DNA of 64,000 bases from a virus (Duplodnaviria; Caudoviricetes): the IMG/VR virus record IMGVR_UViG_3300049844_000087, positions 1-64,000 of that record; one strand, given 5' to 3'. A program made the position numbers and the translations under genes. A model generated the notes under the pieces. It ran no database searches and was not told where the DNA came from. It worked only from the letters and a program-made list of their open reading frames with translations. Positions 25,513 through 63,809 of the stretch are shown piece by piece (positions within the stretch are counted from its first letter, which is position 1; every line of letters begins with the position of its first letter).

Positions 25513-25584
25513 AAATGCTCCTTTATTATATTATTGCCAGTTACCTGACTTCTTCATCATATCACATGATAAAGCTAGGAGCAC

Positions 25585-25618
25585 AAAAAGTAAAGGGCTA
25601 GACCTAAGTCTAACCCTT
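25585..25618 (-). terminator. Intrinsic terminator after tail tube gene
   Basis: AAGGGTTAGAC-TTAG-GTCTAGCCCTT followed by TACTTTTT. Confidence 0.85.
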
Positions 25619-25757
25619 GTAAAATGCTGGTTCTGTCTATTCAACCCTTCCGGTCAGGCTGTCAGCAAGTTGTTTTACGTTTTACCCCATTCCTGGGCAC
25701 TAGAGGTAAGATTTTCGTGTGCCGTCAGGTTAGAACCTATAAGCCTATCGTTTCAGC

Positions 25758-26478: not shown

Positions 26479-28290
26479 TTACGCACTCTGACGAATATTG
26501 TCAAGAGTGATTCGGTTAAGGATGAAGTCAACACCTTGAACTGGAGTGATTGTGATGTCGATTACAGCAGTGTTGCCGTTGATCGTTACCAACAAGTTCT
26601 TAAATCCAAGATTATCATTTGTGTCGTCTCCGACAATGATATTTGCTCTAAGGAATGAATCCATGATAGAGATGACTGTGTTCTTGATTGCTTGAGCAGT
26701 TCCAGTTGCAGCCTTATTTCCGATGAAGATAGCTTCCAACTGTTGTCTTAGGTTATAAGCAACATAGTCAGCAGCTTCAATAACAGAAACTCGGTTCCAA
26801 ACAAAATTCGCATCAATTCCGTAAGTAGTGTTGTGAACTACTACTCGGAAACCGCCGCTGTCAGCTTCTTCCAAAGGCAACAATCCGGCATCAATAGCCA
26901 AGTCAATTTGAGTCTTAGAGTTGTAATCTTGGTGCTTAATAGCGTTGGCGTTTACAAACTTGAACGTAGCAGGAGTTCCTACTTCTGTTCCAGCCTGGAT
27001 ACCAGCTACCATACAAGCAGCTCCCCAAGGATCAACAAACTTCAAGTTGCCATCTGCACCCAAGACTTGAACATCTTGGAACAACATTGACGCACGTTCG
27101 TGATTCAATGCTTGTGAAGCAGTTTGCATAGCCGCAAAAGCACCTTTCTTAGAAACGTAACAGTTTCTTTCAGATCGGTTTTTAGTATTTGAAGCGGTAA
27201 TGCAATGTGTCAAAGCTTGCAAGTTTACAGCGTCAACAGTGAAAGTAGAAGCGGGATCAGTGTCTCCACTTGCGATCAATGCTGAAGCGTCTTGAGAAAT
27301 CAAAGGAACAACTTCATTACAACGAACTGCCAACAAAGCATCGAAAGCTGCCTGGAAGTTTGAATTCGCAGAAGCTCCTCGTACAGCGCCAGACAAGAAG
27401 ACAGGTCCTACGTTTGCAGGAAGTCCTTCGGCATTCGCCACTTGAGACATAGTAACCAATTGTGATTGGCTATTAACGATGTCAAGCAACTCTTGTTGTG
27501 CTCTTCGCAGAGTTTTCGCAGAAGTCTTTACATCCAAAGCTGTGCTGATAAAGTCAAGAGAAGAAGCAGAAGTAGACTTTGCGTTTTGGAATGAGGTTGA
27601 TGCTGAGTATGAAGCATTTGAATCAATAATGTCAACCAAATCCTGTACTGATTTTCCAGGAAGTGAAATGCTCAAATTGTCAGCAGGAGTAGAAGATGTG
27701 GTTGCTACCAACGTCTTTACACCGCTCAAATTTTGAATAGTGATTGTGCAGCTTGCATCTGCGCCAGTGTATTGCATTTGCATTACAGCAGCATAAGCAT
27801 TTTCAGTAAGAGTCTCGGTAACACCGTTCTTCTTAATAGTGAATACTTTGTTATTTGCAGACGAACCGTTTGCTACTTGAATGTTGATCAAATTCTCATC
27901 TTCGCCAAAGTTAGCAGAAGTGAGAGTGAACAAATTCGCAGGAGCAGAATTCTGTAGAATTTTAGACGCTTGCGTAGAAGCATTGGTCTTGTAGACTCGG
28001 ATCATCGAAGCGCCGTTTGGAACTCGATTGTCACGAGCAGGTGCTACTAGCAATCTAGCTGCATCTACGATAGGACCGGATTTATATTTTGCGATCAACG
28101 AAGCAATATCTTCGCTGGTAAACGTTTGCACGCCATCGCTCGATCCAGGCGCACCACCGAGAGCTTCACCAACAATGGCTACAACACCAGTCGCAGACAG
28201 TGGAAAACCGCCGGACAGGTTGACTCTGGTTTGAGAGTATGCGCCAGGTTTAGCGATACTTGCTCCGTTAAAATTAACTCTAATTGCCAT
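26479..28290 (-). CDS. Contractile tail sheath protein
   Basis: 603 aa; KPGAYSQT, AIVGEALGG, RVSVIEAADYV, QQLEAIFIG, ITITPVQGVDFI motifs. Confidence 0.9.
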   Translation of the reverse strand: MAIRVNFNGASIAKPGAYSQTRVNLSGGFPLSATGVVAIVGEALGGAPGSSDGVQTFTSEDIASLIAKYKSGPIVDAARLLVAPARDNRVPNGASMIRVYKTNASTQASKILQNSAPANLFTLTSANFGEDENLINIQVANGSSANNKVFTIKKNGVTETLTENAYAAVMQMQYTGADASCTITIQNLSGVKTLVATTSSTPADNLSISLPGKSVQDLVDIIDSNASYSASTSFQNAKSTSASSLDFISTALDVKTSAKTLRRAQQELLDIVNSQSQLVTMSQVANAEGLPANVGPVFLSGAVRGASANSNFQAAFDALLAVRCNEVVPLISQDASALIASGDTDPASTFTVDAVNLQALTHCITASNTKNRSERNCYVSKKGAFAAMQTASQALNHERASMLFQDVQVLGADGNLKFVDPWGAACMVAGIQAGTEVGTPATFKFVNANAIKHQDYNSKTQIDLAIDAGLLPLEEADSGGFRVVVHNTTYGIDANFVWNRVSVIEAADYVAYNLRQQLEAIFIGNKAATGTAQAIKNTVISIMDSFLRANIIVGDDTNDNLGFKNLLVTINGNTAVIDITITPVQGVDFILNRITLDNIRQSA

Positions 28291-39590: not shown

Positions 39591-39989
39591 TTATGGACGC
39601 ATTACAATTACTTGAACACCTGCGTCAGAAGTTCTCAATTTAAGAGACTTCATTTCTGAACTTGCAATTCCAGTAAAGATCATCAATGTAGAATTAGGGG
39701 CAATTGCCATTCCAGTAGTTATATCAACGGTAGCTGGAACAGCATCATGATCTGTTACCGAAACATATTGCCAACTAGCAGTGGTATTTGCGATTCGTAC
39801 TGATCCTCGCTCTGGGACATTTGCTCCGGCAACAGCGGTGTGTTCAGCCGAAGGTACAATTCGCTCTACAGCGTGAATATCTCCATTCGCTGATCTACTT
39901 GTTCCTGAAGCATCATTGTGTTGATCATTTGCGATTGAAGAAGGGTTTCTAGAAGTCTTCTTCAAATTTAGGTTTTGATTGCTACTCAT
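39591..39989 (-). CDS. Putative head decoration protein
   Basis: 132 aa, C-terminal beta domain. Confidence 0.45.
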   Translation of the reverse strand: MSSNQNLNLKKTSRNPSSIANDQHNDASGTSRSANGDIHAVERIVPSAEHTAVAGANVPERGSVRIANTTASWQYVSVTDHDAVPATVDITTGMAIAPNSTLMIFTGIASSEMKSLKLRTSDAGVQVIVMRP

Positions 39990-40284
39990 TTTCTTCCTCT
40001 TCGTTTAGATCGGCTTCAACTGAAGAAGCTCTTTTCTTAATCAAACTTCTATTCACTTTCTCAATTTCATTTCTAAAAAAGAAAAGTAAATCTCTGTATC
40101 GTTTGTAATCTGATCGCATAAAGTCTAGTTGAAGATCCCTACCCTGCCCTAGAGAATCTTGAAAAACAAATAATACTGTAGGCTTGTCATGCTTACCTAC
40201 TGTAACTTCTGTCCTTAAAAATTTCAATCCATTCATTTCTAAAAATGGACATAGTGCAAGATTATCAGTCTTAAACTCTTTCAT
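39982..40284 (-). CDS. DUF5659-like protein
   Basis: FKTDNLALCPFL...G.KF...V.FVF pattern. Confidence 0.45.
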   Translation of the reverse strand: MKEFKTDNLALCPFLEMNGLKFLRTEVTVGKHDKPTVLFVFQDSLGQGRDLQLDFMRSDYKRYRDLLFFFRNEIEKVNRSLIKKRASSVEADLNEEEENE

Positions 40285-40330: not shown

Positions 40331-40362
40331 AAAAAAAGGCCCCTGGCAGAACGCCAGAGGCC
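40331..40362 (-). terminator. Intrinsic terminator ending candidate sRNA
   Basis: GGCCTCTGGC-GTTCT-GCCAGGGGCC followed by T7. Confidence 0.9.
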
Positions 40363-40419
40363 AAGGAGGAGGAAGTAACTGAGGAGGGGATCTTTCAGTT
40401 ACAAGACCCTTGCGGTCCT
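40331..40419 (-). ncRNA. Candidate small RNA with two anti-Shine-Dalgarno tracts
   Basis: Own promoter, two hairpins, CCCCTCC loop, TTCCTCCTCCTT linker, own terminator; no ORF. Confidence 0.6.
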
Positions 40420-40425
40420 ATACTA

Positions 40426-40453
40426 AATATAACACTTTTCGTCTACTTTTCAA
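40426..40453 (-). promoter_or_regulatory. Sigma70-type promoter for candidate sRNA
   Basis: TTGAAA-16 nt-TATATT with TG extension; predicted +1 at A40419. Confidence 0.65.
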
Positions 40454-40521: not shown

Positions 40522-41982
40522 TTAAGCAGCTCGACCGATATTCTCAATCAAGAAGTTCTTGCGAGGAGCGTAAACAATCGGAGTTCCGTACAAGAGTTGC
40601 ATCCAGCGATAAGCAGTAGCAACAACTGCAAGGTCCATCTTCATCAGAGGAGCCAATTGTTTGAAGCGGAGAACCTCTGCATCCTTAGTCAACAGGTAAG
40701 CCTGTGAAAGACCAGGAAGCTTGTGGTTCAGGTCTCGCATAGTAGCGTTACCACCAACAGCCGCAGGAGCAATGTATCCAATGAACTCATGTCCAGTAGA
40801 AGCACCAAGCGGTGAGCGATAAACTGCATAAGCGATTGCACCAGCAACACCTACGATAGAAACTTCTACTCGCTGACCAGCAGCTACAGCTTGAGCCGCA
40901 GAAACAGGAGAGATAGGTCCTTCGCCGGATTCAGTGATGGCAGAAGCACGGTAAGTGTAGTTACCAGCATCAGCAGCAGTGAACTTTGAAAGAGCGTCCG
41001 CAGCAACAGCCAAAGTAGGAGCAGCAGGAGCAGCAATTCCAGCCAAAGGAGCAGCAGGAGTGCGCTTAGGTCGCATGAACACTGAACTCATGAGTTGGAA
41101 CTCACCAGCAGCAGCTACGAACGACTGAAGAACGAAACCAGCTTTACCTTGAGCGATACCCATTGGGTTAACACGCTCTTTAGGGAAGAACTGACGGCCA
41201 AGGTCAGAGTGAGCCTTAGTGTCCATCAACATGATTGAAGGAATACCGAAGTTTTCACCGACAACACGAGCAGCATCTTCAAGCAAGTCGCTATCCAAAA
41301 CATCACCACGGATGTCACGGATTACGTCTTCTTCAACACCGTAACCAGTGAAAGCCTTTGCTTTAGCAGACGCATCAGTGTTACCTTTGCGGATTTGCTT
41401 ATCAAGACCTTCCCAAGCAGTGTCATCATCAAGGATCGCAGCGTCCGAACCATCATGAACACCAGACGCAGAAGCGTAGTGACCACGACCGTCAACCAAT
41501 GCTCGCTCGACGATTTCGAGGATTCGCATAGTTCCGTTTCGGATTTCACGAGCGATTGCGTCGCCGTGAGCGTTACGAACCAACGTGTAAACGTGAGTCA
41601 ACTCACGAGTAACGCCGATGAAACGTACTCTTTGGATTTGACGAGTGTAGCTCGAATCCTCAGAGCGGGGAAGAGCGCCTTCCTTAATGAAGCCACGGCC
41701 TTGATCACCGTATGCGTCAGTTCGGTTGTACTCTTCGATTGTGTTGAACGCCTGATCTTTGTCGATCATAGGCCACAACTTCAGGTGTTTCATTTCATAG
41801 GTAACAGACTTCAAAGACGAATCAAGAGATTCAACTTGTAGTGCTCCGCCACCAGTTAGAGAAGAGGGGGCACCTGCGTAACCTGCACCTGCTTCCAAGG
41901 CTTTATTCAGTTCACCAACTTCCATTGCAGTGGTAGCACCGAATCCTTCGCCAAAATTTACGAAGTTATAATTTTGAGACAT
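40522..41982 (-). CDS. Major capsid protein (SPO1/Twort-like)
   Basis: 486 aa; GALQVESLD, TIEEY...YG..G..F..EG, R....VRFIG.T motifs; strong AAGGAG RBS and terminator. Confidence 0.9.
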   Translation of the reverse strand: MSQNYNFVNFGEGFGATTAMEVGELNKALEAGAGYAGAPSSLTGGGALQVESLDSSLKSVTYEMKHLKLWPMIDKDQAFNTIEEYNRTDAYGDQGRGFIKEGALPRSEDSSYTRQIQRVRFIGVTRELTHVYTLVRNAHGDAIAREIRNGTMRILEIVERALVDGRGHYASASGVHDGSDAAILDDDTAWEGLDKQIRKGNTDASAKAKAFTGYGVEEDVIRDIRGDVLDSDLLEDAARVVGENFGIPSIMLMDTKAHSDLGRQFFPKERVNPMGIAQGKAGFVLQSFVAAAGEFQLMSSVFMRPKRTPAAPLAGIAAPAAPTLAVAADALSKFTAADAGNYTYRASAITESGEGPISPVSAAQAVAAGQRVEVSIVGVAGAIAYAVYRSPLGASTGHEFIGYIAPAAVGGNATMRDLNHKLPGLSQAYLLTKDAEVLRFKQLAPLMKMDLAVVATAYRWMQLLYGTPIVYAPRKNFLIENIGRAA

Positions 41983-42005: not shown

Positions 42006-42923
42006 TTAGTTTGAAAAACGTTTTTTAGTTTCTTCCATTACAAGAGCTTTTACTTGAGGGTTACTTAAATTCTTAGTAGCCTCAAATTCAGCAATGTGTC
42101 GGCTGTTGATGCCTTTACCAGCTTTCTGAAGTTCCAACATAGTGTCTAGGACTTGAGATTTTGAAATAGTGACTTCGCTAGAACCACTCTTCTCGATTGT
42201 CTCAAGGCTATCAACTGATTGCCGACCATGAGCAGGTTGTGTAGAGAGTTTCTTGACTTCTACACTCAACGATTTGATCATATCATCCTTTTCGGACAAT
42301 TTTTGTTCAAAAGATTTTTTGATGTCTTCAAGTTGAGCACCTACTGCTTGAGCAACAGATTTTGCGATGTCAACAGAACTCTCTTGTTCTTCTGATTCAT
42401 CGTTCTCTTCTCTCCAAGCTTTGATTAACTCAAGCTCTTCAGCATCTACTCCAGCAGCAGCAAGTTCTTCGATAGATTTTTTCATCTTCTTGTTCTTGTG
42501 CATTTCTTTTTCGTGCTCATCAACTTCTTTGTCTGCTTCTTTATCAGCAATTTTCTTTGCTTCTTCTTTAGAAACAGCCTTTTTCAAGTCAGCTTCAGAC
42601 TGCGCAGACTTTTCAGATTTTTCATCATCCTCGTCTTCATCGTCTTCTTCTTTCTCTTTTTTAGCTTTGGCTTTTTTAGCAGCTTCAGCTTTTTGCTCTT
42701 CGCTCATAGGAGCGCCAGACTTAATTTTGTCTTCGCCACCATTAGCTTGCTTATTTTCGTCTTTTGACTCTTCAGACTTAGCAACGGTTTCAGTCGAAGC
42801 GGGTTTCTCAGAAACAACCTCTTCATCTTTCCCCATAGTCTCGTCGATGATTGCATCGAGCGACTTCAGAATTTCTTCTTCAGTCATTTTTTTCTTAGCT
42901 TCAGACATCTTTTTCTCCTTCAA
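42006..42923 (-). CDS. Capsid scaffolding protein
   Basis: 305 aa, highly charged E/K coiled coil between protease and capsid genes. Confidence 0.75.
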   Translation of the reverse strand: MKEKKMSEAKKKMTEEEILKSLDAIIDETMGKDEEVVSEKPASTETVAKSEESKDENKQANGGEDKIKSGAPMSEEQKAEAAKKAKAKKEKEEDDEDEDDEKSEKSAQSEADLKKAVSKEEAKKIADKEADKEVDEHEKEMHKNKKMKKSIEELAAAGVDAEELELIKAWREENDESEEQESSVDIAKSVAQAVGAQLEDIKKSFEQKLSEKDDMIKSLSVEVKKLSTQPAHGRQSVDSLETIEKSGSSEVTISKSQVLDTMLELQKAGKGINSRHIAEFEATKNLSNPQVKALVMEETKKRFSN

Positions 42924-43752
42924 TGCTCTTGAGCTTTGATGCGATCACCTTGAGCAAATCACGAGGATCTTCTTCAGGGTGCAGTTCGCACATGCGCTGC
43001 AAGATTGATTTTAACATTCGTTTTTGACTTTTTTTGTCTTTTTTGTTCATACGTTTGAGCTTAGACTCTAAAGACTCTTTAGAAAGTGCCTCTCCGCCTG
43101 TTCGCATAGCAGGAGCCAAAGCGGGGCCAGCACCAGCAGCTAGAGCTTTTGCAACTCCAACTTCAATAGCTTTTTCAAGTTCTGTTCTTTCCATAGTCAG
43201 ATAAGCTGGCTCTGGAATCTCTTCCATATTGCCAGAAGCTAGTGATTTAGATAGATCAGCATAGGTGTATGGGTTGACAGGGTCTAACGTCAACGCAACC
43301 TTATCAATTCGAGCATTTCTGATCACTGATTTATTAACAGTATCTCGCTGAAGAATCTTACCTTCGATACTCATGTGAACACGAGGCGCACTGCCTTTCT
43401 TCACTGATTTCATGATGTTATAGAATGCTTGCGCACGAGGTTGATGCTTAAAAAGATAACCTTTAACCATCAAAACTTTCTTACCATCTGACTTCACAAA
43501 TTCAGCATCTTCAATTTGACCAATGACGTTTTCTGGTCCTTTCTGATGATCGACATTAAACAATCCACGTCCGGCCTTTAAAGGAGATATATCCAGACCA
43601 TTTTGGTCAACTACTTCACCTTGAAGATCCTGATCTGGAGTCGAAGCGATACCCTTGACGATCCAAGTATCTTCGCCATCAGCGTCTTTTGATTTTTCAA
43701 GTTCCACAGGAACGTGGATTTGAAATGATTTTACGAGTTTTTCATCAGACAC
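42901..43752 (-). CDS. Prohead protease
   Basis: GIAST..QDLQGEVVDQNG, NVDHQ (His), HMSIEG (Ser), VALTLDPVN. Confidence 0.85.
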   Translation of the reverse strand: MSDEKLVKSFQIHVPVELEKSKDADGEDTWIVKGIASTPDQDLQGEVVDQNGLDISPLKAGRGLFNVDHQKGPENVIGQIEDAEFVKSDGKKVLMVKGYLFKHQPRAQAFYNIMKSVKKGSAPRVHMSIEGKILQRDTVNKSVIRNARIDKVALTLDPVNPYTYADLSKSLASGNMEEIPEPAYLTMERTELEKAIEVGVAKALAAGAGPALAPAMRTGGEALSKESLESKLKRMNKKDKKSQKRMLKSILQRMCELHPEEDPRDLLKVIASKLKSIEGEKDV

Positions 43753-43798: not shown

Positions 43799-44053
43799 TC
43801 ACAAGCCCTTGAGCTTTTTTACTTTCTCAAGGTCTGCCATCTTTCGCTGGACCTTTGCCAAGGCTTTTTTCTCGATTGCGGTGACTGCTGCGATTGACAT
43901 TCCCAGTAACTTACCAATTTCGTTCAATGTGTGAGGTCGTGCATTATGACGCATGTATGTAAAAAAGCAATTATAGAACGCAGGAGCGTTTACACGCCAT
44001 TCCTCTGGGTTCTCATTGCACTTACAATTGTCACGGTGTACGATCTTACTCAT
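43799..44053 (-). CDS. Sigma70 region-4-like HTH regulator
   Basis: PHTLNEIGKLLGMSIAAVTAIEKKALAKV matches the region 4.2 HTH pattern. Confidence 0.7.
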   Translation of the reverse strand: MSKIVHRDNCKCNENPEEWRVNAPAFYNCFFTYMRHNARPHTLNEIGKLLGMSIAAVTAIEKKALAKVQRKMADLEKVKKLKGL

Positions 44054-47314: not shown

Positions 47315-47502
47315 ACGATCCAAAGGTCATCATGACTAAAACAGACCTTGAAATGATTAGGTCTCAGGCCATTAGGCTCTATGTGGATCTTAATCCGCAA
47401 AAGCTAAAGATGGATGATTCTCAATTTAGGACATATTGTTATGTCCAAGCAGTACAGGCGTGGCTCAGAACGAGAGGGCTTTTAAAAATAATTATTGACT
47501 AA
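47293..47502 (+). CDS. Hypothetical protein
   Basis: GGAGG RBS before the ATG at 47293. Confidence 0.5.
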   Translation: MDDQGGINDPKVIMTKTDLEMIRSQAIRLYVDLNPQKLKMDDSQFRTYCYVQAVQAWLRTRGLLKIIID

Positions 47503-47539
47503 TTTTGTAGGCTATGACAGTATGGAAACAGGAGGACTC

Positions 47540-47785
47540 ATGAATAAATGGAAAACTTGCAACCATAACTGGAAAGCCGTAGCAGTGTACTCCGTGTACG
47601 GAACTGTCTACCAAGACGAATGCACTGAATGTGGGTGTATCGGGGTTCTAGCAGAGGAACCGGATGAGCATGGTTTTTATAAAATCGTAGCTCAACCTAT
47701 GGCAGACGTAATTGATTTAAACGAATATAGAAAGAGAAAGGAACAAAAGAATGTCCAACCAAGCAAAGAAACTGTCGGCGGCTGA
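47540..47785 (+). CDS. Hypothetical Zn-ribbon protein
   Basis: CNH...CTECG; GGAGG RBS before 47540. Confidence 0.55.
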   Translation: MNKWKTCNHNWKAVAVYSVYGTVYQDECTECGCIGVLAEEPDEHGFYKIVAQPMADVIDLNEYRKRKEQKNVQPSKETVGG

Positions 47786-48050
47786 TGCAATTGTTATAGC
47801 AAAGAAAAACTCGCTCGCTCGTAAGCAAAAAGTTGCCCGAGGGTTGAGACAACTTTGTTTTGAAAAAATCGGAGAAATGGTAGCTAATGGAGTAGTGAGT
47901 GTTTACGTTCCGATGAACGAAGAACAACACTTCTGGGGTTTGGCGATTATTCAGAAAGAACTAGAAGACCTTGGCTATAAAGTTATCTTGCACGAAGATG
48001 AAGAGAGCGAAACTCCTGATTTGGAACTCTCAATTGAACACTTGAAATGA
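47751..48050 (+). CDS. Hypothetical protein
   Basis: 99 aa, AAGGA RBS. Confidence 0.55.
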   Translation: MSNQAKKLSAADAIVIAKKNSLARKQKVARGLRQLCFEKIGEMVANGVVSVYVPMNEEQHFWGLAIIQKELEDLGYKVILHEDEESETPDLELSIEHLK

Positions 48051-48057
48051 GGACTAA

Positions 48058-48894
48058 ATGAATGTCGATTACGAATTCCTTGGTGGACAAAATTCTGACG
48101 AAACCGTAAGAGCCTATAAAACGGATCTTGAGCAGTTTCAAGTTATTGCTGGTGGAGAGTTGACTAGAGGCGGAGTCATCCTTTTTAGGGATGAGTTGCT
48201 CAAACAAGGACTGTCCCCTTCTACAGTTGCCCGAAAGATGTCTACAATTCGTAGTTACTGTGAATTCCTGCGAGGCCAAGGAAAACTTAGCATTGATCCC
48301 TTTGCTGGCGTCAAAGCACCTAAAGTGTCAGTGTCCGAGCCTACTCAAGCTTTTACCGACGATGAAGTTCGTAAAATGTTCAAAGTAGTAGAGAAGACGC
48401 AAAAACCAGTAGAGCGTGAGCGAGATAAGCTGGTATTGGGATTTTTGTTTTATGCAGGATTGCGCAGATCAGAGATTGCTAGTCTAAAATTCTCTGACAT
48501 CAAAGAACTTGAAGGCCAAATAGTTATTCGAGTATTTGGTAAAGGCGGAAAGTACAGAATGATTCCTGCGCACCCAAAGCTCGCCGAAATGCTGTTACCA
48601 CATTTGGTAAGCACTCCGTTGTGGCCTAAAGCATCCGATAGATCCCTTCTAGATATTAGCGGCGGAACAATTTACGCCATTGTAAAGAAATATGCAAAAA
48701 TGGTTGGAGTTACGAGAAGCGTGTCTCCTCACTCTTGCAGAGCAACGGCAATCTCTCAGTTGTTAGAAAACGGAGAATCGCCAAGAAACGTTGCAGATTT
48801 TGCAGGTCATGCCAGTGTCAATACGACTATTGGCTCTTATGACAAAAAACGAGATGGAATTAAAAACAGCGCAGCAATGAAGTTGCGATTTTAA
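48058..48894 (+). CDS. Tyrosine recombinase (XerD/integrase-like)
   Basis: TVARKMSTIRS core-binding domain; GLRRSE (R), GKGGK (K), HSCR (HxxR), GHAS (H), GSYD (Y). Confidence 0.9.
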   Translation: MNVDYEFLGGQNSDETVRAYKTDLEQFQVIAGGELTRGGVILFRDELLKQGLSPSTVARKMSTIRSYCEFLRGQGKLSIDPFAGVKAPKVSVSEPTQAFTDDEVRKMFKVVEKTQKPVERERDKLVLGFLFYAGLRRSEIASLKFSDIKELEGQIVIRVFGKGGKYRMIPAHPKLAEMLLPHLVSTPLWPKASDRSLLDISGGTIYAIVKKYAKMVGVTRSVSPHSCRATAISQLLENGESPRNVADFAGHASVNTTIGSYDKKRDGIKNSAAMKLRF

Positions 48895-48906
48895 GAAAGG
48901 CACAAA

Positions 48907-49476
48907 ATGAAATATCTAGTTTTGGATACGGAGACCGGAGGATTTGAAGGCACTTCGTTACTTACTGCTTATTTTTCCGTGCATGATGAAGTTTTCAACG
49001 AGTTAGATACTATGCTCTTGGAAATGAAGCCAGAAGACGGAAAATACATCGTTACCGCAGAAGCTCTAAGAATTAATGGAATTGATTTGAAATTGCACGA
49101 TCAAAGGGCAATTACTTATAAAGAGGCTGGAACTAGGCTCTACAACTTCTTAAACGGAAATTCTGTACTAGGCTCAGACAAACTCATTCCAGTTGGTCAC
49201 AACGTTCAGTTTGACATTCAAAAGTTGCTTGAGTTCTTGATGAGCAAGCAGACGTGGCAAAAGTTTGTTTCTTATAGAACTATGGACACCGGAGTGATTG
49301 CTAGAGCTTGTATTCAAGCAGGTCTATTGCCGTCTTCAATCTCTGGAAGTTTGGGTTCTATTGCTGAGCATTTTAAGATCGACACTACGCAAGCGCACAC
49401 GGCAGATCATGATGTTTTTATGACTGTTACAGTTCTTGAAAAAATGTTGGAGTTGATGCGCAATGGAAAACGATGA
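48907..49476 (+). CDS. DEDDh 3'-5' exonuclease (DnaQ-like)
   Basis: LDTETGG, GHNVQFDI, HTADHDV. Confidence 0.9.
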   Translation: MKYLVLDTETGGFEGTSLLTAYFSVHDEVFNELDTMLLEMKPEDGKYIVTAEALRINGIDLKLHDQRAITYKEAGTRLYNFLNGNSVLGSDKLIPVGHNVQFDIQKLLEFLMSKQTWQKFVSYRTMDTGVIARACIQAGLLPSSISGSLGSIAEHFKIDTTQAHTADHDVFMTVTVLEKMLELMRNGKR

Positions 49477-49912
49477 TCTGTATAAGTTAGTCCTACATCC
49501 TAACACTTCTCTGAAAGAAAAACTTTCAGAGGAGGTCCATTGGGTGACTGATGAACATAAAGCTATAGCAGAGAAGATGCTACGCACTATGTATGCAAAG
49601 AAGGGCTGTGGCCTTTCTACGCCGCAGGTAGGACTTAAGATCAGATTAATCGTGTACGATGCAGGAGACGGTCCTAAAGTTATGTTTAATCCCTTTATCA
49701 CCAATCGCTTACCTAAAAAGGAACGTGCGGGAGAGGGGTGTTTAAGTTTTCCAAAATTGGGCATTTTTGTTCAACGTTTCAAAACCATTCTAGTTCGTTA
49801 TAGAGGTTTAGATAATATTGTGCGAGAAGAACAATTTTCTGATTTTGAAGCTAGAATCATCCAGCATGAAATAGATCATCTCGATGGAATAACTTTCTTA
49901 CAAAGGAAATAA
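49463..49912 (+). CDS. def: Peptide deformylase
   Basis: GCGLSTPQVG, EGCLS, QHEIDHLDG motifs; short C-terminus. Confidence 0.92.
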   Translation: MENDDLYKLVLHPNTSLKEKLSEEVHWVTDEHKAIAEKMLRTMYAKKGCGLSTPQVGLKIRLIVYDAGDGPKVMFNPFITNRLPKKERAGEGCLSFPKLGIFVQRFKTILVRYRGLDNIVREEQFSDFEARIIQHEIDHLDGITFLQRK

Positions 49913-49913
49913 T

Positions 49914-50171
49914 ATGGCTGAGCAAGTTTTTGTAAAACCTACAGATGTACTTTCGGCACCAAAGCTTTTGAAGCTTTTGTCCGATACAGTAGAAAAACTT
50001 CGTAATCAAATCGTCACCGAGACTGATGAAACTAAGCGGTATGCTCTCGGCGGTGCAGCAGAAATGCTAGTTGATTTGCACAACGTAATTCTAGAAGATA
50101 TTAAAAAGCAAAGACTCACAGAAAGCTTCGATGACAATTCAGGCCGAGGCGATGGGCACTTTGATGCTTAA
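49914..50171 (+). CDS. Hypothetical protein
   Basis: 85 aa, AAGGA RBS. Confidence 0.55.
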   Translation: MAEQVFVKPTDVLSAPKLLKLLSDTVEKLRNQIVTETDETKRYALGGAAEMLVDLHNVILEDIKKQRLTESFDDNSGRGDGHFDA

Positions 50172-50529
50172 GCTTTTGTTGGTAGGCGACAAGCCATCAA
50201 AAAAGAACAAAGATCCAAACGTTGCGTTTGTTGGCACAGCTTCGCACAAGCGCATTCAAGAATGGCTCAATAAAATTCTGACTTCAAAAGCTAAGATTCT
50301 AATGGTCAATAGGGTAGATCCACAGTTTCATAGAACCCTTATTCACGCCACGCTTAATCAATATAAAATTGTAGCGTTGGGTAATGAGGCCGCTCAAGCT
50401 TTAGTTGAGTATGGCATTGTTAATTTTTTCAAATTACCCCATCCATCGGGTAAAAATAGAAAACTTAACAATAAAGCTTTTGTAGCTGCTGAGTTGGCTA
50501 ATTGCAAAACCTGGATAGAAGGGGATTAG
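50164..50529 (+). CDS. Uracil-DNA glycosylase-like protein
   Basis: LLLVGDKPS, IVALGNEA, KLPHPSGKN motifs. Confidence 0.65.
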   Translation: MLKLLLVGDKPSKKNKDPNVAFVGTASHKRIQEWLNKILTSKAKILMVNRVDPQFHRTLIHATLNQYKIVALGNEAAQALVEYGIVNFFKLPHPSGKNRKLNNKAFVAAELANCKTWIEGD

Positions 50530-50876
50530 AAATCTATGCGGAAGTTTACTGTAGTTTCTTTTTCGCCAACAGTCATTCGTATAGATGAGTTTTTAATGCT
50601 TGGGTTTGGAATGGCTATTGTGGCACTTCTTCTTGCAACTATTTGTGCGGTATATCCAGCTACGGCAGCCGCCATTTCGACTTCTGCTGAAGGATCTATG
50701 TACTGTATGACATCTCGTTCGGTTCTCTTGGCAACTCTTTCAAAAGCTCCAGCAAAACCACTTTGCGCCGCACCTTGTTCTAAGGCAGCTTTACAAGCGT
50801 CCGTGTATGTCGGACCTGTGTTTACGCATAATGCAACTATTAAAGGCGATAACGTCATAGTAAAAGGATACCACAA
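50526..50876 (-). CDS. Isolated antisense gene, putative secreted/membrane protein
   Basis: Fills the gap between two plus-strand genes exactly; hydrophobic N-terminus; C-terminal Phe. Confidence 0.5.
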   Translation of the reverse strand: MWYPFTMTLSPLIVALCVNTGPTYTDACKAALEQGAAQSGFAGAFERVAKRTERDVIQYIDPSAEVEMAAAVAGYTAQIVARRSATIAIPNPSIKNSSIRMTVGEKETTVNFRIDF

Positions 50877-51073
50877 TGAAAATTATTAGAAAAGCACTTT
50901 GGGGAATTGTTCTCATTTTGATATTAACGAATGTGTGTTTGGAGTTTTGGCATCGTGGCTTTGATTCTGGTTACAGTATGGCGATGTCCGATGTGTTGCT
51001 TCAAATTGAGACACCTGAAAATTATTTCATAAAAAAGTTTGACATACAGATACCTCGTAGAGTACAACAATAA
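50876..51073 (+). CDS. Small membrane protein
   Basis: N-terminal TM, AAGGA RBS. Confidence 0.55.
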   Translation: MKIIRKALWGIVLILILTNVCLEFWHRGFDSGYSMAMSDVLLQIETPENYFIKKFDIQIPRRVQQ

Positions 51074-51085
51074 CAGGAGGCGGAA

Positions 51086-51349
51086 GTGATTAAAGTAAAA
51101 GGAATAGAAGATTCAGAACTTGAGTGGAACTATACTTCTCCACCTAAGTTTTACAAGAAAATCAGCAAGACTCCAGACTCAGATGGAATCTTTAAAGTAG
51201 AAGTTTTTAAGCTGAAGAGTTTTAACGTTTTCACTAAGGAAGCTGTTTATGTGAAAGCAAAGAACGAGAAAATGCGTTCTACTCTTCCAGCAGAGCAACA
51301 GTTTAATTATGCTACGCCTAAGAAACGTGGCTATGATATTGAAGATTAA
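51086..51349 (+). CDS. Hypothetical protein
   Basis: GGAGG RBS, GTG start. Confidence 0.55.
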   Translation: MIKVKGIEDSELEWNYTSPPKFYKKISKTPDSDGIFKVEVFKLKSFNVFTKEAVYVKAKNEKMRSTLPAEQQFNYATPKKRGYDIED

Positions 51350-51374
51350 TAACCGAAGTAACATAGGAGGGAAA

Positions 51375-51884
51375 ATGTCTACTTCAAAAACGCAGAATAA
51401 TAAATTGGCCGTAACCGTAGCTGCTTCTAGCCGCTATAAAATCCAAAAGAACGGAGTTATTAAAAAACTCACGTCTAGTGGAAATTATCGTGCAATTGGC
51501 ACAGAAAGGCACGGATATAACGTTATATCTGTTGGCGGTAAAAAAATCGTCACAGCTCGAATCTTGGCAGCAAAGCAGTATTTACAACTTGGCTTTTCTC
51601 CTCAGTACGTTGTCGAGCTTTTGAATAAACGAGTGGTGGTTCGCAGAAATGGTAAAAGCCTTGACGACCGAAGAGTAAATCTTACGGCTGTAACTTCTAC
51701 AGCACTTGTTAGAAAAGAGACTACAAAACGTTTAACGCAAAAACAAATTGATCGAATGGTCGAATTGTTTTTCGATGGTTACTCTGTTGCAAAAATTGCT
51801 CGTCGATTTCGACGTAAAGTCTCTCGTTCTCACATCAGTCGCATTATTCGCAAAGAACTCGGTATTGAAACGGTAGGAGCATAA
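51375..51884 (+). CDS. Degenerate HNH-fold plus C-terminal HTH DNA-binding protein
   Basis: VVRRNGKSLDDRRVNL in place of the HNH motif; YSVAKIARRF..VSRSHISRIIR HTH; start after GGAGGG. Confidence 0.55.
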   Translation: MSTSKTQNNKLAVTVAASSRYKIQKNGVIKKLTSSGNYRAIGTERHGYNVISVGGKKIVTARILAAKQYLQLGFSPQYVVELLNKRVVVRRNGKSLDDRRVNLTAVTSTALVRKETTKRLTQKQIDRMVELFFDGYSVAKIARRFRRKVSRSHISRIIRKELGIETVGA

Positions 51885-51885
51885 A

Positions 51886-52197
51886 ATGAAAAGCGCAAAA
51901 GGCAAAAAGAAGTCAACAGAAGAAAAAGGCCCAAATCCTTACGATTTTTCTCTGAAACGTCAAACACGTTTAGATAAAGCTGCGGCCAATACTAAACCAG
52001 CTCGTCCTGAACTAATGGCGGCTGGAATGCTTAAGGCACACGGCTTGGAGAAAGCAAAGCGAATTGTAGAGCCTTTGACAGTTACGTCCTTCAAGGATAA
52101 AGATGGCAATCCAGTTGCTCCCAACGAGTCCGCAAATTATTGGAAGCACGTCCTGCAATACCTTAACAAAGGAAAAAGGAATGCAATCGCAAGTTAA
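51886..52197 (+). CDS. Hypothetical protein
   Basis: 103 aa, GGAG RBS. Confidence 0.6.
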   Translation: MKSAKGKKKSTEEKGPNPYDFSLKRQTRLDKAAANTKPARPELMAAGMLKAHGLEKAKRIVEPLTVTSFKDKDGNPVAPNESANYWKHVLQYLNKGKRNAIAS

Positions 52198-52402
52198 AAC
52201 TATTCAGTTCAGAATAACTACTAAAGATTTGATGGAAGTCAAGGACGCATACAATTTGTACGACACACGCTCGGCAATCAAATTTATGTTCGAGCAGCAA
52301 TTTCCACAGAAAGAAGTTATTCTTGAGCACGGATTTTGCTCAGACCCTTGTCCTGTAAACTCAGATGCGGTAGTAATTACCGTGAAAGCGAGAGATAAAT
52401 GA
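52181..52402 (+). CDS. Hypothetical protein
   Basis: Start at the ATG after AAGGA. Confidence 0.5.
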   Translation: MQSQVKTIQFRITTKDLMEVKDAYNLYDTRSAIKFMFEQQFPQKEVILEHGFCSDPCPVNSDAVVITVKARDK

Positions 52403-52818
52403 ATTTGATTTTTCATAATAGAGAACAACCAGATGCTTGGGATGGATCTTATGGACATCGCTCAACTGTGGTTCTAGAAAAGCCCGATGTTCGAGAGATT
52501 ATGCAAGAACTGCGAAAACAGTTCATCCCTTCTTGCATGAAGATTCCTAAAATCACAGTAAATGTTGGAGTTGCCAAAGTTCATCCAAAAGACTCATTTA
52601 ATAAGAAGCTCGGCAGAAAGCTTGCCGAATCTCGAATGAAGCCTATCGAGATGACTATCGGCATTCACGATATGTATCAGAACTCAGAAGAAGCTATTTG
52701 GCTAGTTCTTACTGGAATTGATTCTGAGAAACAGATTCATTACTCTTTGAACGTTAAAGTTTACAGAGACTCTGGAACAATGCGAGCACTCGCTTGTTAC
52801 ACGAGGAGTTGGCGATGA
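52399..52818 (+). CDS. Hypothetical protein
   Basis: 139 aa; HPKDSFNKKLGRKLA motif, which recurs in phage proteins. Confidence 0.6.
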   Translation: MNLIFHNREQPDAWDGSYGHRSTVVLEKPDVREIMQELRKQFIPSCMKIPKITVNVGVAKVHPKDSFNKKLGRKLAESRMKPIEMTIGIHDMYQNSEEAIWLVLTGIDSEKQIHYSLNVKVYRDSGTMRALACYTRSWR

Positions 52819-53015
52819 AAATCTACCTCGTTTACATGGGAGAAAGTTTTGAGTCTGCCGTAAAACGGCATGGTGATAACTTTTTTAAAAGTGTGAATGA
52901 AGCTGTAGATTTTGGAAAGCTAATGTTGGAGCCAGGGCAGCGATTTTGGGTTTGTGATGAAAACGGCGGAGTTTTGGTTATTAGCCAAGCTCCGAGAATT
53001 GTAGGTAAGGCGTGA
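52815..53015 (+). CDS. Hypothetical protein
   Basis: GAGGAG RBS, ATGA overlap. Confidence 0.55.
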   Translation: MKIYLVYMGESFESAVKRHGDNFFKSVNEAVDFGKLMLEPGQRFWVCDENGGVLVISQAPRIVGKA

Positions 53016-53281
53016 ACAAACGTCAACAAATAAACGCCGAAATATTAAAACAGCTAGAAGCAGCAAACTCTGCCCTACCTGATCAACGTTTTAGCCAGTT
53101 GCTTGTGAATGCGGGGATAACGCACGACGTATCTAAGAATTTAGAAGGATGGCAAGCTCCTGTTCACATGGTTTTTTATAACGAAGAGTCTGAAGTTACT
53201 TTGAAGCGTCTTCTAGAAACACTGGAAGACCTTTACGCAAAGATGTTGGAGGGATCTGATGTTGATCGTGAAGAAGTGTAA
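53012..53281 (+). CDS. Hypothetical protein
   Basis: PDQRFSQLL...FYNEES pattern; GTGA overlap. Confidence 0.55.
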   Translation: MNKRQQINAEILKQLEAANSALPDQRFSQLLVNAGITHDVSKNLEGWQAPVHMVFYNEESEVTLKRLLETLEDLYAKMLEGSDVDREEV

Positions 53282-53612
53282 ATACGGTAGGGGAGTTTTT
53301 ACTACTGCCAAAATAGAAGCTGGCGATGTTCTATTGGTGGATGATCTATTGCTGATTACTCCTGAAGATAGACTTGGAAGTCTTACCCTACGGCGTTATG
53401 ATTTTGCTTTTCACGATACTAAGGAAGCTGAGAGTGGAATTGCGTTAGGTCTGGCATCTTTGCTTAATCATTCTTCTAGGCCAAATGCTGAGTTCGATAC
53501 GGCGTATAATAGTAAAGGCTTGCCTGTAGTTTTTGTAACGGCGATCAAAGACATTAAAGCTGGCTCTCAAATTACTATTGATTACGGCTACGATCCTTTG
53601 GAGGTTACATGA
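53259..53612 (+). CDS. SET-domain methyltransferase
   Basis: GRGVFT, LLNHSSRPNA, AIKDIKAGSQITIDYG. Confidence 0.88.
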   Translation: MLIVKKCKYGRGVFTTAKIEAGDVLLVDDLLLITPEDRLGSLTLRRYDFAFHDTKEAESGIALGLASLLNHSSRPNAEFDTAYNSKGLPVVFVTAIKDIKAGSQITIDYGYDPLEVT

Positions 53613-53920
53613 GCGTACTTAATGAGATTGCGCAGCTTTGCGAACAAAAGACGCTAGAAACATTGCGAATTCCAGTATTGGCAAAAGTTCCTTCTAGCAA
53701 GTACAAAGAACTTATAGAACAGATGAAAGGTATTATGCGCCTACCGCCAATGGAGATGGTCCATGGTGAAAATGGATGGCGTATGGAAACTGCACAAGAG
53801 TATAGCGAGCGTATTAATAAACCGCCTACTTATGTGACTCTTACGTTAACAACTGGAACGCTGAGAATCGTACCGCATTCTGGAATTAACATCGAGGTGG
53901 AATTTGAAAAAGAAAATTAG
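53609..53920 (+). CDS. Hypothetical protein
   Basis: GGAGG RBS, ATGA overlap. Confidence 0.55.
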   Translation: MSVLNEIAQLCEQKTLETLRIPVLAKVPSSKYKELIEQMKGIMRLPPMEMVHGENGWRMETAQEYSERINKPPTYVTLTLTTGTLRIVPHSGINIEVEFEKEN

Positions 53921-54125
53921 TTTAATACTGCCGCTTGACACTGTTGACAGATTGCGCTCTATAGCAGAGCTTGCAGGAGTGACTTTTGACGACGTGATTG
54001 GTGTGGTACTTGCAACGAAAATTATAAAATTACGAGAGGAAGAAAATGGACGCTCAAAGAAAAGCTCAAATAAAAAAAGTAATGCTAGATCATCTTCAAA
54101 GTCTAGGCTGGCCAAACGTAAATGA
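53904..54125 (+). CDS. Putative ribbon-helix-helix DNA-binding protein
   Basis: KKISLILP-LDTVDRLRSIAELAG-VTFDDVI pattern; TTG start after GAGG. Confidence 0.4.
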   Translation: MKKKISLILPLDTVDRLRSIAELAGVTFDDVIGVVLATKIIKLREEENGRSKKSSNKKSNARSSSKSRLAKRK

Positions 54126-54279
54126 TCCAGAGACTTTTGCTTTCAATCAGTCGGAAGTCATGTTTAAATTACTTCTGCGTTTGAATCTCGTGAAATATGC
54201 AGATTGGGAATCTTACTACATGGCCGCTATTCAGCAGTACGAAAGAGCCCAAATGCGAAAAGCTGGATTTCCAGTATGA
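54046..54279 (+). CDS. Hypothetical protein
   Basis: GAGGA RBS. Confidence 0.55.
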   Translation: MDAQRKAQIKKVMLDHLQSLGWPNVNDPETFAFNQSEVMFKLLLRLNLVKYADWESYYMAAIQQYERAQMRKAGFPV

Positions 54280-54304
54280 ATCACGTTTTTAATGGAGGTA
54301 CTCT

Positions 54305-55183
54305 GTGAATATTGATAATTATAAACTCATTCAGTCCGGTGGCGACGGTGGAGACACTTGTCATAGAATGTTTACAGTCGCTTTGCGAATTCTCGTGAAC
54401 TTCAAGATGGTACTCAGCGATAGGCAACCTGTTCCAGACATCGTAAAGAATCCAGTATGGAGTGAAATTGCTTCTATCGAGAAGTCTTTCGAGTTGTTGG
54501 AAGATTCTCCTGGAATTTACAAACGTCACTGTGACCCTAACTTTTGGGGTTCTGATCCAAACAACTGCTCTCGTGATCAATTGACCCCAGTAATTTGTAC
54601 GCTTGCCTTTTTAGCGGCTCGTTCTGGAGATATTGGTAAAACTTATAGAGCTAAACTGACTGCCCTACTGAAGCAATCTCTTAAGCGTTTTATGTTTGCG
54701 CAGAACATTTACCCTAACTGGGTTGATGCTCGAAAAGACTCCACGGTCAAAAAGAAAACTCCTGACTTCTTGAATTTTGAGTTGTGGGGAGTTTTTGCTC
54801 GTGGATACTTGGGTACGATCTTCGCTCCTTTGGCTCTGCTGTTTGTCATCTTTGGCGATCTTGTTTTAGTGCTATCTGCACTATTTAAAGTTTTTGCCCC
54901 AATCACTAAGGATGGCACGCTGGAATTTCGTATGCCTACTCCTGACGACGTGGACGATGACAATATGAATAATGTGCTCATGGTAACTCAGCATGTTTTT
55001 CAAACTCCGCTTTCTTGGTTAGCTCGCAAGATTTACAAACGTTTTAGAGCTAAGAACTTCGGCAATACCGTTCTAGGAGAATCAGATCCTATAATGGGAG
55101 CATTGGCCTATTACCACAGGGCTGACGCACAAGGTAATCCAGAGATTGCCGAACTTGCTCGTCCCATTGTGAAACACTATTAA
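54305..55183 (+). CDS. Hypothetical helical enzyme-like protein
   Basis: 292 aa, GGAGG RBS; GDGGDT, YKRHCD, SRDQL, DDVDDD motifs. Confidence 0.6.
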   Translation: MNIDNYKLIQSGGDGGDTCHRMFTVALRILVNFKMVLSDRQPVPDIVKNPVWSEIASIEKSFELLEDSPGIYKRHCDPNFWGSDPNNCSRDQLTPVICTLAFLAARSGDIGKTYRAKLTALLKQSLKRFMFAQNIYPNWVDARKDSTVKKKTPDFLNFELWGVFARGYLGTIFAPLALLFVIFGDLVLVLSALFKVFAPITKDGTLEFRMPTPDDVDDDNMNNVLMVTQHVFQTPLSWLARKIYKRFRAKNFGNTVLGESDPIMGALAYYHRADAQGNPEIAELARPIVKHY

Positions 55184-55190
55184 ATAATCG

Positions 55191-55217
55191 TTGACTTTTT
55201 TAGTCAAATGCTACAGT
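55191..55217 (+). promoter_or_regulatory. Putative promoter
   Basis: TTGACT-15 nt-TACAGT with TG extension. Confidence 0.4.
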
Positions 55218-55236
55218 CTAGGTAAACGGAGGACGT

Positions 55237-55437
55237 ATGGATAAAAAAGTAAGCATAACAGTTGGACCTGGACTCGGTGGACTTTTAACAGTTCTATTCG
55301 TTGCCCTTAAGCTGACAAACCATATAGATTGGTCTTGGCTTTGGGTACTTAGCCCTTTATGGATTCCGTGGGCTATCATTTTTAGTATTTTCTTAGGCGC
55401 ACTGTTGGTTTCCTTCATTGCGGCATTATTGAAATAA
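55237..55437 (+). CDS. Two-TM membrane protein
   Basis: LTVLFVALKLTNHIDWSWLWVLSPLWIP, GGAGG RBS. Confidence 0.7.
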   Translation: MDKKVSITVGPGLGGLLTVLFVALKLTNHIDWSWLWVLSPLWIPWAIIFSIFLGALLVSFIAALLK

Positions 55438-55449
55438 AGAAAGGGTTTT

Positions 55450-56364
55450 ATGAAGAAGCGAGAAGTTAGTTACGACGGTTACTCAAGAGATAACGACAAA
55501 TATTACGTTTTGCCAAAAGCGGTGAATCGTGAATCAAAGATCCCAACTGGGATTTATCGTATGGATTTTAACCACGAAAGCAAGCGTGCTTATCTGTACG
55601 AGACTGAGTTGACACATGATGACATTTTGGATCTTCCTAGCGAAGAGTATGTCGAAGTCATGCGAACCATGTCTCGATTTCTTCTTCCAGAGGTTCGAGC
55701 GGGTTACGAGCGACTTGGATACTTGTATAAGCGTAACTTGCTTATGCACGGAGTTCCTGGCGCTGGAAAGACGATCTTGGTTAATCGAATCACTGAGTCT
55801 GCGGTTAAGAACCAAAATGCGATTTGTATTTTCGTAGATCGTAAAACTGCAACTGGAAACGTAGATGGCGTGCTTTTGTTGGAACTGGTCATGAATTGGT
55901 TTAAGGATACTAACCCAGATAGTTTGCTGGTTTTGATCTTGGAAGAAGTTGACGAGATGATTGCTCGAAGTGAGCACCAATTGCTCGTTTTCTTGGACGG
56001 TCAGATGCAGCGACCAAATACTATCGTGCTCGGGACTACAAACTACATTCACAAGATTCCACCTAGATTCTTGCGTCCTGGTCGATTCAGTCAGACTATC
56101 GAAGTTAAGTTGCCTTCGCTCAAAGCTCGTAAGCACTATTTGACTCACAAGCTTGGTAAAGATTTCGAGCATCTTGACACTTGGGCAAAAGAGACAAAAC
56201 AATTCTCTATTGATGATTTGAAAGAAGTTATTCAATCCTGTTACCTCATCGGCGAGCCGTTCAAGAAAGTTGTTGAACGTCTGCGTAAGACCAAAGGTCT
56301 GAGTGGTGATGAACCGGAGGATAATCAATGGGATGACACTGAGTCCTTCGAGGTTGTTGAGTAA
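55450..56364 (+). CDS. AAA+ ATPase
   Basis: Walker A HGVPGAGKT, Walker B LILEEVDE, SRH RPGRF. Confidence 0.9.
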   Translation: MKKREVSYDGYSRDNDKYYVLPKAVNRESKIPTGIYRMDFNHESKRAYLYETELTHDDILDLPSEEYVEVMRTMSRFLLPEVRAGYERLGYLYKRNLLMHGVPGAGKTILVNRITESAVKNQNAICIFVDRKTATGNVDGVLLLELVMNWFKDTNPDSLLVLILEEVDEMIARSEHQLLVFLDGQMQRPNTIVLGTTNYIHKIPPRFLRPGRFSQTIEVKLPSLKARKHYLTHKLGKDFEHLDTWAKETKQFSIDDLKEVIQSCYLIGEPFKKVVERLRKTKGLSGDEPEDNQWDDTESFEVVE

Positions 56365-56442
56365 AGGATTTGAATTGGAAGTTAAAGAAGTTATGCGCAA
56401 AATGGCGCAGTCTTTAGCAAAGTCATTTGAGGGAGGGAATAA

Positions 56443-56799
56443 ATGACGACTAGATTACAACTATCAGGAAAAGCATCAGATCAGTTTGCAATTATTGACT
56501 CGGAAGATTTTGAGAAGGTAAAAGGCTACAACTGGTATATCGGATCAAATGTGAAGAAGCGCAAGGACGGTACTGTAGGGTATCGTCGATATTACGTCTT
56601 TACTACTATTAATGGGAAAACCGTTCGATTGCACCGTTTACTTAAAGATGTCACAGACTCCTCTTTAGACGTAGACCACATTGACGACGATTTCCTAAAT
56701 AACACTAAAGCTAACTTGTGTGTCATGGATCACGTTTCGCACGCAAAGAAAAGCTGTATGCGTAGAAAAGAAATTCAGAAACTAAGGAAGAGTGCATGA
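56443..56799 (+). CDS. HNH endonuclease
   Basis: RLHRLL...VDHIDDDFLNNTKANL. Confidence 0.8.
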   Translation: MTTRLQLSGKASDQFAIIDSEDFEKVKGYNWYIGSNVKKRKDGTVGYRRYYVFTTINGKTVRLHRLLKDVTDSSLDVDHIDDDFLNNTKANLCVMDHVSHAKKSCMRRKEIQKLRKSA

Positions 56800-63249: not shown

Positions 63250-63755
63250 GTCTCATTTTGAGACGCTCATTTTGTTTTTTCTTTTTTATCTTATAAGGTC
63301 TTGAAAGTTTAGGATTGAAAGCCTTATGCGCTCGACTAGATACTGTCTAGACGGCTTTCGTCTGTCTTGCAAGCCGTTGACTTTCGTCTTGAAACCGCTG
63401 TCAGTCTCATTCTGAGAATTTATTTTTGATTTTTTTGCTTTCAAGCCTTAAGTCCTGTCAATTGACGCCGATAAGTATAAGGTCAAGACAAGCAAGTCTT
63501 GCAAAACAAAGGAGTATCAAAATGAAACGAAATTCAATCAACGGACATCTTGTTTCAATATGGAACGAAATCGTTGACCAACTAAGTCTGTCTCAATATG
63601 AGTCAACTATGGGTGGCGACATGTCTTATAAGTCTAAGGCGGAAAGGGCAATGCAAGTGTCTCGAAATAAGACGGTTCATGCCTTATGTCTCGAATTGAT
63701 AAACGTCTATGATTCTCATTTCGGGACAAGTGCCTTAACTGTCTCAAATAGAGAC
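63250..63755. repeat. Five copies of the GTCTCA-N3-TGAGAC palindrome
   Basis: 63250 (perfect), 63404, 63590, 63659, 63741. Confidence 0.75.
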
Positions 63756-63773: not shown

Positions 63774-63809
63774 TTTTCACGGTCTGTCAATATAAGGCTT
63801 TCGTCAAGG

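Follow-up and report, generated by a model that had tools for sequence, protein, structure and literature searches.

Between the major capsid gene of a large uncultured phage and the next gene of its structural block lies a short intergenic segment, and the question that this locus raises is whether the segment encodes an RNA of its own and, if so, what such an RNA could do for the phage. The DNA examined was a window of 64,000 nucleotides (the whole stretch analysed) within a 78.4-kb IMG/VR virus record that is estimated to be 67% complete. The locus is contained in the minus-strand structural block of a myovirus, where a sequence-only reading had proposed a small RNA (sRNA) gene. Promoter, transcription start (+1), two hairpins, single-stranded tract, terminator and the lack of an ORF were all recovered on the minus strand where that reading had placed them, and the RNA folded as it described. 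The features of the block, in the direction of transcription, are as follows.

42901-43752, minus strand: prohead protease
42006-42923, minus strand: putative scaffold, a 305-aa ORF
40522-41982, minus strand: major capsid protein (phrog_752, E 5e-70)
40494-40467, minus strand: intrinsic terminator of the capsid gene, with a 12-bp stem and a T-rich tail, immediately upstream of the sRNA promoter
40453-40426, minus strand: predicted sRNA promoter, with -35 TTGAAA (40453-40448), a 16-nt spacer ending in TGT and -10 TATATT (40431-40426)
40419-40403, minus strand: hairpin 1, with a 6-bp stem and loop GCAA+N, beginning at the inferred +1, A40419
40402-40375, minus strand: hairpin 2, with an 8-bp stem and a 12-nt C-rich loop at 40394-40383 (AAGAUCCCCUCC)
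40374-40363, minus strand: open single-stranded tract UUCCUCCUCCUU, containing CCUCCUU, between hairpin 2 and the terminator
40362-40331, minus strand: predicted intrinsic terminator of the sRNA, with a 10-bp GC-rich stem (hairpin 40362-40338), loop GUUCU and a U7 tail
40320-40284, minus strand: promoter-like region of the DUF5659-like gene, with TTGCCT (40320-40315), a 17-nt spacer, TAGTCT (40297-40292), 7 nt and the ATG at 40284
39982-40284, minus strand: DUF5659-like gene adjoining the sRNA (DUF5659 E 0.002, below the Pfam cut-off)
about 40 kb downstream of the capsid gene, minus strand: head-completion and tail genes (sheath at 26479-28290)

Within the tail block, a 245-nt gene-free gap (25513-25757, minus strand) carries a terminator hairpin together with a promoter of the extended -10 type (TG-A-TATGAT) and is GC-richer than its flanks; it could represent another small transcript or a leader.

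The promoter assigned to the sRNA scores 10/12 and has an extended -10; few others in the 78-kb record come as close to the housekeeping consensus. Hairpin 1 opens with A40419, 7 nt past the -10. An RNA of 89 nt that would start there has a predicted folding energy of -37.6 kcal/mol (z = -4.46), and none of 200 shuffled sequences was as stable. No sense ORF of at least 20 aa occurs within the unit, and neither a 69-aa antisense ORF nor the small ORFs of relatives were conserved when coding potential was considered on both strands. With its predicted promoter, intrinsic terminator and non-coding character, the segment has, at the level of sequence, the make-up of an independent transcription unit. 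CCTCC is depleted in the genome as a whole (31 and 19 copies per strand versus approximately 46 expected), and the sRNA is the only spot in 78 kb with at least two copies inside 45 nt, of which it has three.

Relatives were gathered via the capsid protein, by searching viral and metagenomic contigs for a specific DNA pattern, and from MAG contigs. Two scans of viral contigs with short or degenerate patterns returned only noise, whereas the more specific pattern succeeded; the locus had no match in the cultured-phage collection (INPHARED, blastn). Nine distinct homologues, all from the same locus of related metagenomic phages, were aligned (alignment A3), and covariation among them supported all three helices: 99% of cells were paired, compensatory double changes occurred in 9 of 22 pairs and were distributed over all three helices, and the covariation score exceeded that of every one of 500 column shuffles. 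As a control, sliding the pairing partners by 1–3 columns left only 30–55% of cells paired. Hairpin 1 had double changes in three of its six pairs around an invariant GCAA loop and hairpin 2 in four of six, while the terminator helix was paired in 100% of cells, with double changes at two pairs and an invariant GUUCU loop. The -35 and extended -10 elements were likewise kept across the nine homologues, with a spacer that varies in sequence. In CM searches for paralogues the sRNA was single-copy in each of four genomes, and a CM search in relatives with 33–74% capsid identity found no sRNA. We consider the gene very probably genuine, with its own transcription unit of about 89 nt, and the conservation of promoter, helices and terminator, with covariation, bears out the earlier proposal of an independent structured non-coding RNA gene. 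Alternatively, the site could be a passive second terminator or insulator that, together with a fortuitous promoter, separates two late units and yields an RNA without function, as might be expected of a position between two transcription units and beside an insertion hot spot for a mobile ORF. However, hairpins 1 and 2 carry compensatory changes although termination has no need of these hairpins, the core of the open tract does not vary and the promoter is conserved, all of which make a functionless site hardly credible.

The neighbourhood of the unit differs among relatives. In three of them (L201, L203 and L221), the capsid terminator and the sRNA promoter are separated by an inserted mobile ORF of the homing-endonuclease type, and the promoter-to-terminator unit remains intact and still adjoins the downstream gene. 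The mobile ORF (Cys-rich N-terminus, MxYDEILKxEGSxRKAA...) lies at L201:~4560-5850, in L203, at L221:~985-1973, at L015:4551-5960, in L240 and in L251, and as it is present in some and absent from others of otherwise near-identical phages, the interval from the capsid terminator to the sRNA or DUF5659 gene is a hot spot for insertion; the C-terminal half of the L221 capsid protein is 100% identical to that of the window. A further relative with a 74% identical capsid protein (L015) is without the sRNA and keeps the DUF5659-like gene with its promoter-like region, as do L240–L243. Since relatives without the sRNA retain the downstream gene and its promoter region, the downstream genes appear to be independent of the sRNA unit. 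Judged by this distribution, the predicted sRNA is an accessory gene confined to some lineages.

The same comparisons bear on a reading of the unit as a terminated leader or antitermination module similar to lambda pR'-tR' (6S RNA) or the nut/put sites. A strong promoter would then feed the approximately 40 kb of head and tail genes, the 89-nt RNA would be released in the absence of a phage antiterminator, and a boxB-like hairpin 1 (GNRA-like pentaloop GCAAN) and the pyrimidine tract would be elements recognised by a factor or by the polymerase. Such a role would suit a unit that lies directly upstream of the long late block in the same orientation, behind a capsid terminator that leaves the downstream genes in need of fresh transcription, and that stays with the downstream gene, not the capsid gene, after insertion of the mobile ORF; the invariant GCAA loop of hairpin 1 would also be consistent with it. 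However, the downstream gene's own promoter-like region persists in the relatives that are without the unit, the terminator is strong (10-bp GC-rich stem plus U7), and covariation backs only the three hairpins, with no alternative antiterminator pairing. A leader function would, in addition, leave unexplained both the anti-SD-like exposure of the RNA and the C-rich loops of a differently built analogue at the same locus (L246, below), and we regard it as unlikely.

In the window's clade, the DUF5659-like gene is among very few in the genome without a clear Shine–Dalgarno (SD) sequence, and because the -10 of its promoter-like region also ends 7 nt before the ATG, its mRNA may be leaderless. 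The motif of this promoter region was not shared elsewhere in the window. An 84-aa sigma-region-4-like HTH gene (43799-44053, minus strand), which heads the late block, is similarly preceded by TTGACA, a 17-nt spacer, TAACTT and 6 nt before its ATG, has no SD and looks leaderless.

Conservation was found to extend beyond the stems to the two C-rich segments that they leave exposed. The core of the open tract, UCCUCCU, was invariant in all nine homologues and the full UUCCUCCUCCUU was kept in six, the other three departing from it by an added U, by an added C or a G substitution, or by the loss of one CCU repeat; tract length ranges from 9 to 13 nt, and the tract was predicted to be unpaired in every homologue (P(unpaired) 0.85–1.00). 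Within it lies CCUCCUU, the sequence of the 16S rRNA anti-SD core. The loop of hairpin 2 differs in both sequence and length among the homologues but was C-rich in 9/9 (P(unpaired) at least 0.89), with variants such as CCCCUCC, CCCCCUCC, CCUCCC, CCCCUUC and CCCCCC; in one relative the loop is CCCCCCAAAAACA, without CCUCC. The sequence-only reading had pointed to a match at 10 of 11 positions between this loop and the 16S tail GAUCACCUCCU. The match is present in the window genome but is not conserved, the relatives having other C-rich loops, and to judge from the alignment the loop is not a conserved 16S mimic, the conserved property being its C-richness. Selection on the exposed C/U-rich, anti-SD-like sequences is thus supported at the level of sequence comparison, and the outcome that the sequence-only reading had named as refuting it, stems that persist while the C-rich tracts vary, did not occur.

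More distant copies were found by searching through the neighbouring DUF5659-like gene. Two homologues, in L244 (37 bits, E 3e-6; open tract CUCCCUACCCUUA) and L251 (32 bits, E 2e-5; open tract UUCCUUUCCUAAA), retain GCAA in their 5' hairpin and GUUCU as the loop of the terminator; the hairpin-2 loop of L244 is not C-rich, and CCUCC is absent from the L244 loop and the L251 tract. At the same position in L246 (861-986, plus strand) lies an analogous 126-nt RNA with another architecture (z = -6.8) and its own consensus promoter. It displays two C-rich loops, one with CCCCUCC and the other with CCCCC, and carries ACCUCCUUUC just before the terminator, a 10-nt identity with the 16S 3' tail. Two tiny zinc-ribbon ORFs lie between this RNA and the DUF5659 gene. 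A conserved C-rich motif that is predicted to be unpaired and is complementary to SD sequences is present in the window's RNA and also in L244, L246 and L251, and the property of the locus that recurs across lineages is, on these predicted structures, an exposed C/U-rich SD-complementary sequence; strict CCUCC is not universal.

An RNA that exposes such sequences might serve to bind protein, with tract and loop acting as a decoy that titrates an RNA-binding protein or an enzyme recognising the 16S 3' end, for example a host factor, a defence nuclease or a phage protein. The identity of CCUCCUU with the 16S anti-SD core, the longer likeness of L246 ACCUCCUUUC to the 16S tail, the lack of a conserved phage mRNA target (see below) and the invariant GCAA loop, which could serve as a protein site, would all be compatible with this role. 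However, no candidate protein partner is at hand, the 16S-like flanks (GAUCA...) vary among the homologues instead of being conserved, and the range of tract lengths, together with the loss of CCUCC in the distant homologues, would suit a loose pairing seed better. A decoy function consequently appears quite unlikely.

The reading we favour, with a probability of roughly 0.5, is that the RNA acts in trans as a C-rich anti-SD sRNA of the LhrC/csRNA/RsaE/cuckoo kind. Its layout, with a seed in a loop, a single-stranded seed and then a terminator, is common to experimentally characterised C-rich sRNAs, and it is on this ground that an SD-masking sRNA is favoured. The open tract, through CCUCCUU, would pair with the purine-rich SD regions (GGAGG/AGGAG) of mRNAs, the C-rich loop of hairpin 2 would provide a second, redundant seed, and pairing would occlude 30S binding and alter translation or mRNA stability. 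The targets would most likely be mRNAs of the host, possibly joined by a few from the phage whose SDs are unusually strong. Translational shut-off, as the sequence-only reading suggested, is a further inference; a generic anti-SD seed would confer little specificity, and stoichiometry argues against a global shut-off.

Translation in the phage is itself SD-led, with AGGAG, GAGG or GGAGG upstream of nearly all genes. The strong GGAGG-type SDs of the window genome all fall in the plus-strand middle block (47495-56800), the late genes using AGGAG, GAGG and AGGA. As a conserved mark of a target class, GGAGG SDs were considered and rejected: they precede 9 of 41 middle-block genes versus 1 of 48 late genes here, but 3 of 36 versus 2 of 50 in a complete related genome (G001).

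Phage mRNAs, including the phage's own early genes, had been put forward as possible targets. RNAduplex scans were run on about 100 translation initiation regions (TIRs) in each of four genomes, each set against its own sRNA, and this expectation was not upheld: no orthologue group was a consistently strong partner in the four genomes, and no conserved extended complementarity was found in phage mRNAs. As a class, the TIRs gave -8.6 versus -6.2 in background windows, a slight excess of the kind that any SD would give, and no extended complement of the tract beyond chance was found elsewhere in the window. The best site in the window genome is the TIR of an 87-aa gene (51086-51349, plus strand) at -20.3 kcal/mol (the 1% tail of the background lies at -14.5); its RBS and GUG start (window positions 51060-51090, AGGAGGCGGAAGUG) would pair with ACUUCCUCCUCCU over 6+6 bp. 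The RNA might, as a special case of SD masking, be a dedicated repressor of this gene, whose orthologues have, averaged over the four genomes, the best energy of any group and whose orthologue in G002 contains a perfect 10-nt complement (AAGGAGGAGG, -21.2 kcal/mol). However, the site is strong in only two of the four genomes, the orthologues in G001 (-10.9) and G003 (-8.3) having ordinary SDs although the sRNA is kept in both, and with about 100 TIRs ranked per genome chance alone should supply one strong site, making a dedicated repressor very unlikely. Because no phage target was consistent, host mRNAs are the more likely targets of an SD-masking sRNA.

Clues to the identity of that host conflict. 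Within the cultured-phage collection, the nearest capsid proteins belong to Herelleviridae-type myoviruses of Bacillus, Staphylococcus and Listeria; they are only about 35% identical to that of the window and point to phages of Bacillota, whereas an auxiliary gene and MAG bins point elsewhere: the look-alikes of a phage aminotransferase gene are mostly from Pseudomonadota, and three MAG contigs with the phage were in bins labelled Proteobacteria, Saccharibacteria and Chitinophaga. Those three bins are without the tail sheath gene, suggesting that the phage contigs were probably mis-binned. One complete relative (L201) measures 117,954 bp and has direct terminal repeats, and the carriers of the sRNA are a group of uncultured, apparently virulent myoviruses of about 118 kb.

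Late expression of the RNA, as had been proposed, is not supported. Promoters with the consensus of the housekeeping sigma factor normally fire on unmodified host polymerase, and the sRNA promoter has this consensus with an extended -10. As such a promoter needs no phage factor, transcription is probably early or constitutive, from the start of infection. The promoter differs from the repeated cassettes of the right-hand early region. These cassettes, at 63300-64000 of the window and on to approximately 68.4 kb of the record, lie ahead of at least six small plus-strand genes. Each combines a T-rich block with a CCGATAAG...TATAAG motif and an RBS that is nearly the same throughout (CAAAACAAAGGAGTATCAAA-ATG), and together they probably form one family of early promoters and leaders. 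A more elaborate version of SD masking is that the sRNA, by covering SDs in trans, would shift initiation towards SD-free mRNAs and so serve as a translational re-programming device. This reading of a switch from SD-led to SD-independent translation derives from the two genes that head late blocks (43799-44053 and 39982-40284), both of which look leaderless, with a -10 that ends 6–7 nt before the ATG and no SD; we see it as a long shot.

Comparison with known systems places the phage RNA near several groups of bacterial regulators and within none of them. LhrC, for example, blocks the SD of lapB through redundant CU-rich sites and independently of Hfq (PMC4132741). LhrC1-5 of Listeria monocytogenes and the phage RNA have much in common, being short, transcribed from their own promoter and built with a CU-rich hairpin loop and a CU-rich single strand before the terminator as redundant seeds. 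They differ in that there is no sequence or CM similarity (no Rfam match to LhrC at E <=10), that a UCCC/CU-rich terminator loop is a trait of LhrC whereas the terminator loop of the phage RNA (GUUCU) is not C-rich, and that the phage RNA has an extra 5' hairpin, is phage-encoded and is present in one copy per genome. Similarly, the streptococcal csRNAs are RNAs of about 90–150 nt with stem-loops around an unpaired region that carries a conserved CCUCCU anti-SD (PMC4438229). In contrast to the csRNAs, the phage promoter (TTGAAA-16-TGtTATATT) has no CiaR repeat (NTTAAG-N5-TTTAAG), and the anti-start codon is absent, since the tract is followed by the GG of the terminator with no CAU; here too there is no Rfam match.

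The staphylococcal and Bacillus C-rich sRNAs RsaE/RoxS, the hairpins of RNAIII and SprD/SprX resemble the phage RNA in exposing C-rich motifs, through which they pair with SD regions rich in G. Mobile or phage-derived DNA is the location of SprD and SprX. RNAIII, RsaE, SprD and FsrA are listed among the users of a UCCC motif (PMC4132741). Unlike these RNAs, to which it shows no homology, the phage RNA comes from a large myovirus and not from a chromosome, an island or a prophage.

Among Rfam 15 families none reached its gathering threshold (best PrrF, 28.5 versus 90; suhB, 19.9 versus 41; ar14, 16 versus 58.8), nor did any with the distant homologues and analogue in L244, L246 and L251. The best sub-threshold resemblance is to two alphaproteobacterial RNAs, alpha-r8 (RF00519, suhB/MmgR) and alpha-r14 (RF02344, cuckoo), which have a CCUCCUCC-type motif followed by the terminator (RF00519) or placed in hairpin loops (RF02344). 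The likeness extends to motif and terminator only, at 19.9 versus 41 and 16.0 versus 58.8 bits for the window's RNA and 23.2 versus 41 for L244. The lambda pR'-tR' 6S RNA and nut boxB modules also share features with the unit, namely a strong constitutive promoter, a short terminated RNA upstream of the late genes and a GNRA-like pentaloop, but here no antiterminator or alternative structure was found, the downstream gene has its own promoter and relatives dispense with the unit.

Very little has been charted of the regulatory RNAs that large virulent phages encode. The literature searched yielded no characterised sRNA with an anti-SD seed from such a phage, and in a Listeria Herelleviridae phage the non-coding regions with high transcription were explicitly noted to lack UCCC motifs (PMC12282133). 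For a call made by computation alone the support is unusually strong: the promoter is conserved, all three helices show covariation, the exposed seed does not vary, and lineage-specific analogues occupy the locus. By its CM scores and defining features, the predicted RNA is a member of none of the families compared, and we rate it a new RNA family whose proposed mechanism is of a known kind. If SD masking is indeed its function, the RNA would be a compact, portable repressor of SD-led translation, with which a phage turns the ribosome's own recognition sequence against mRNAs.
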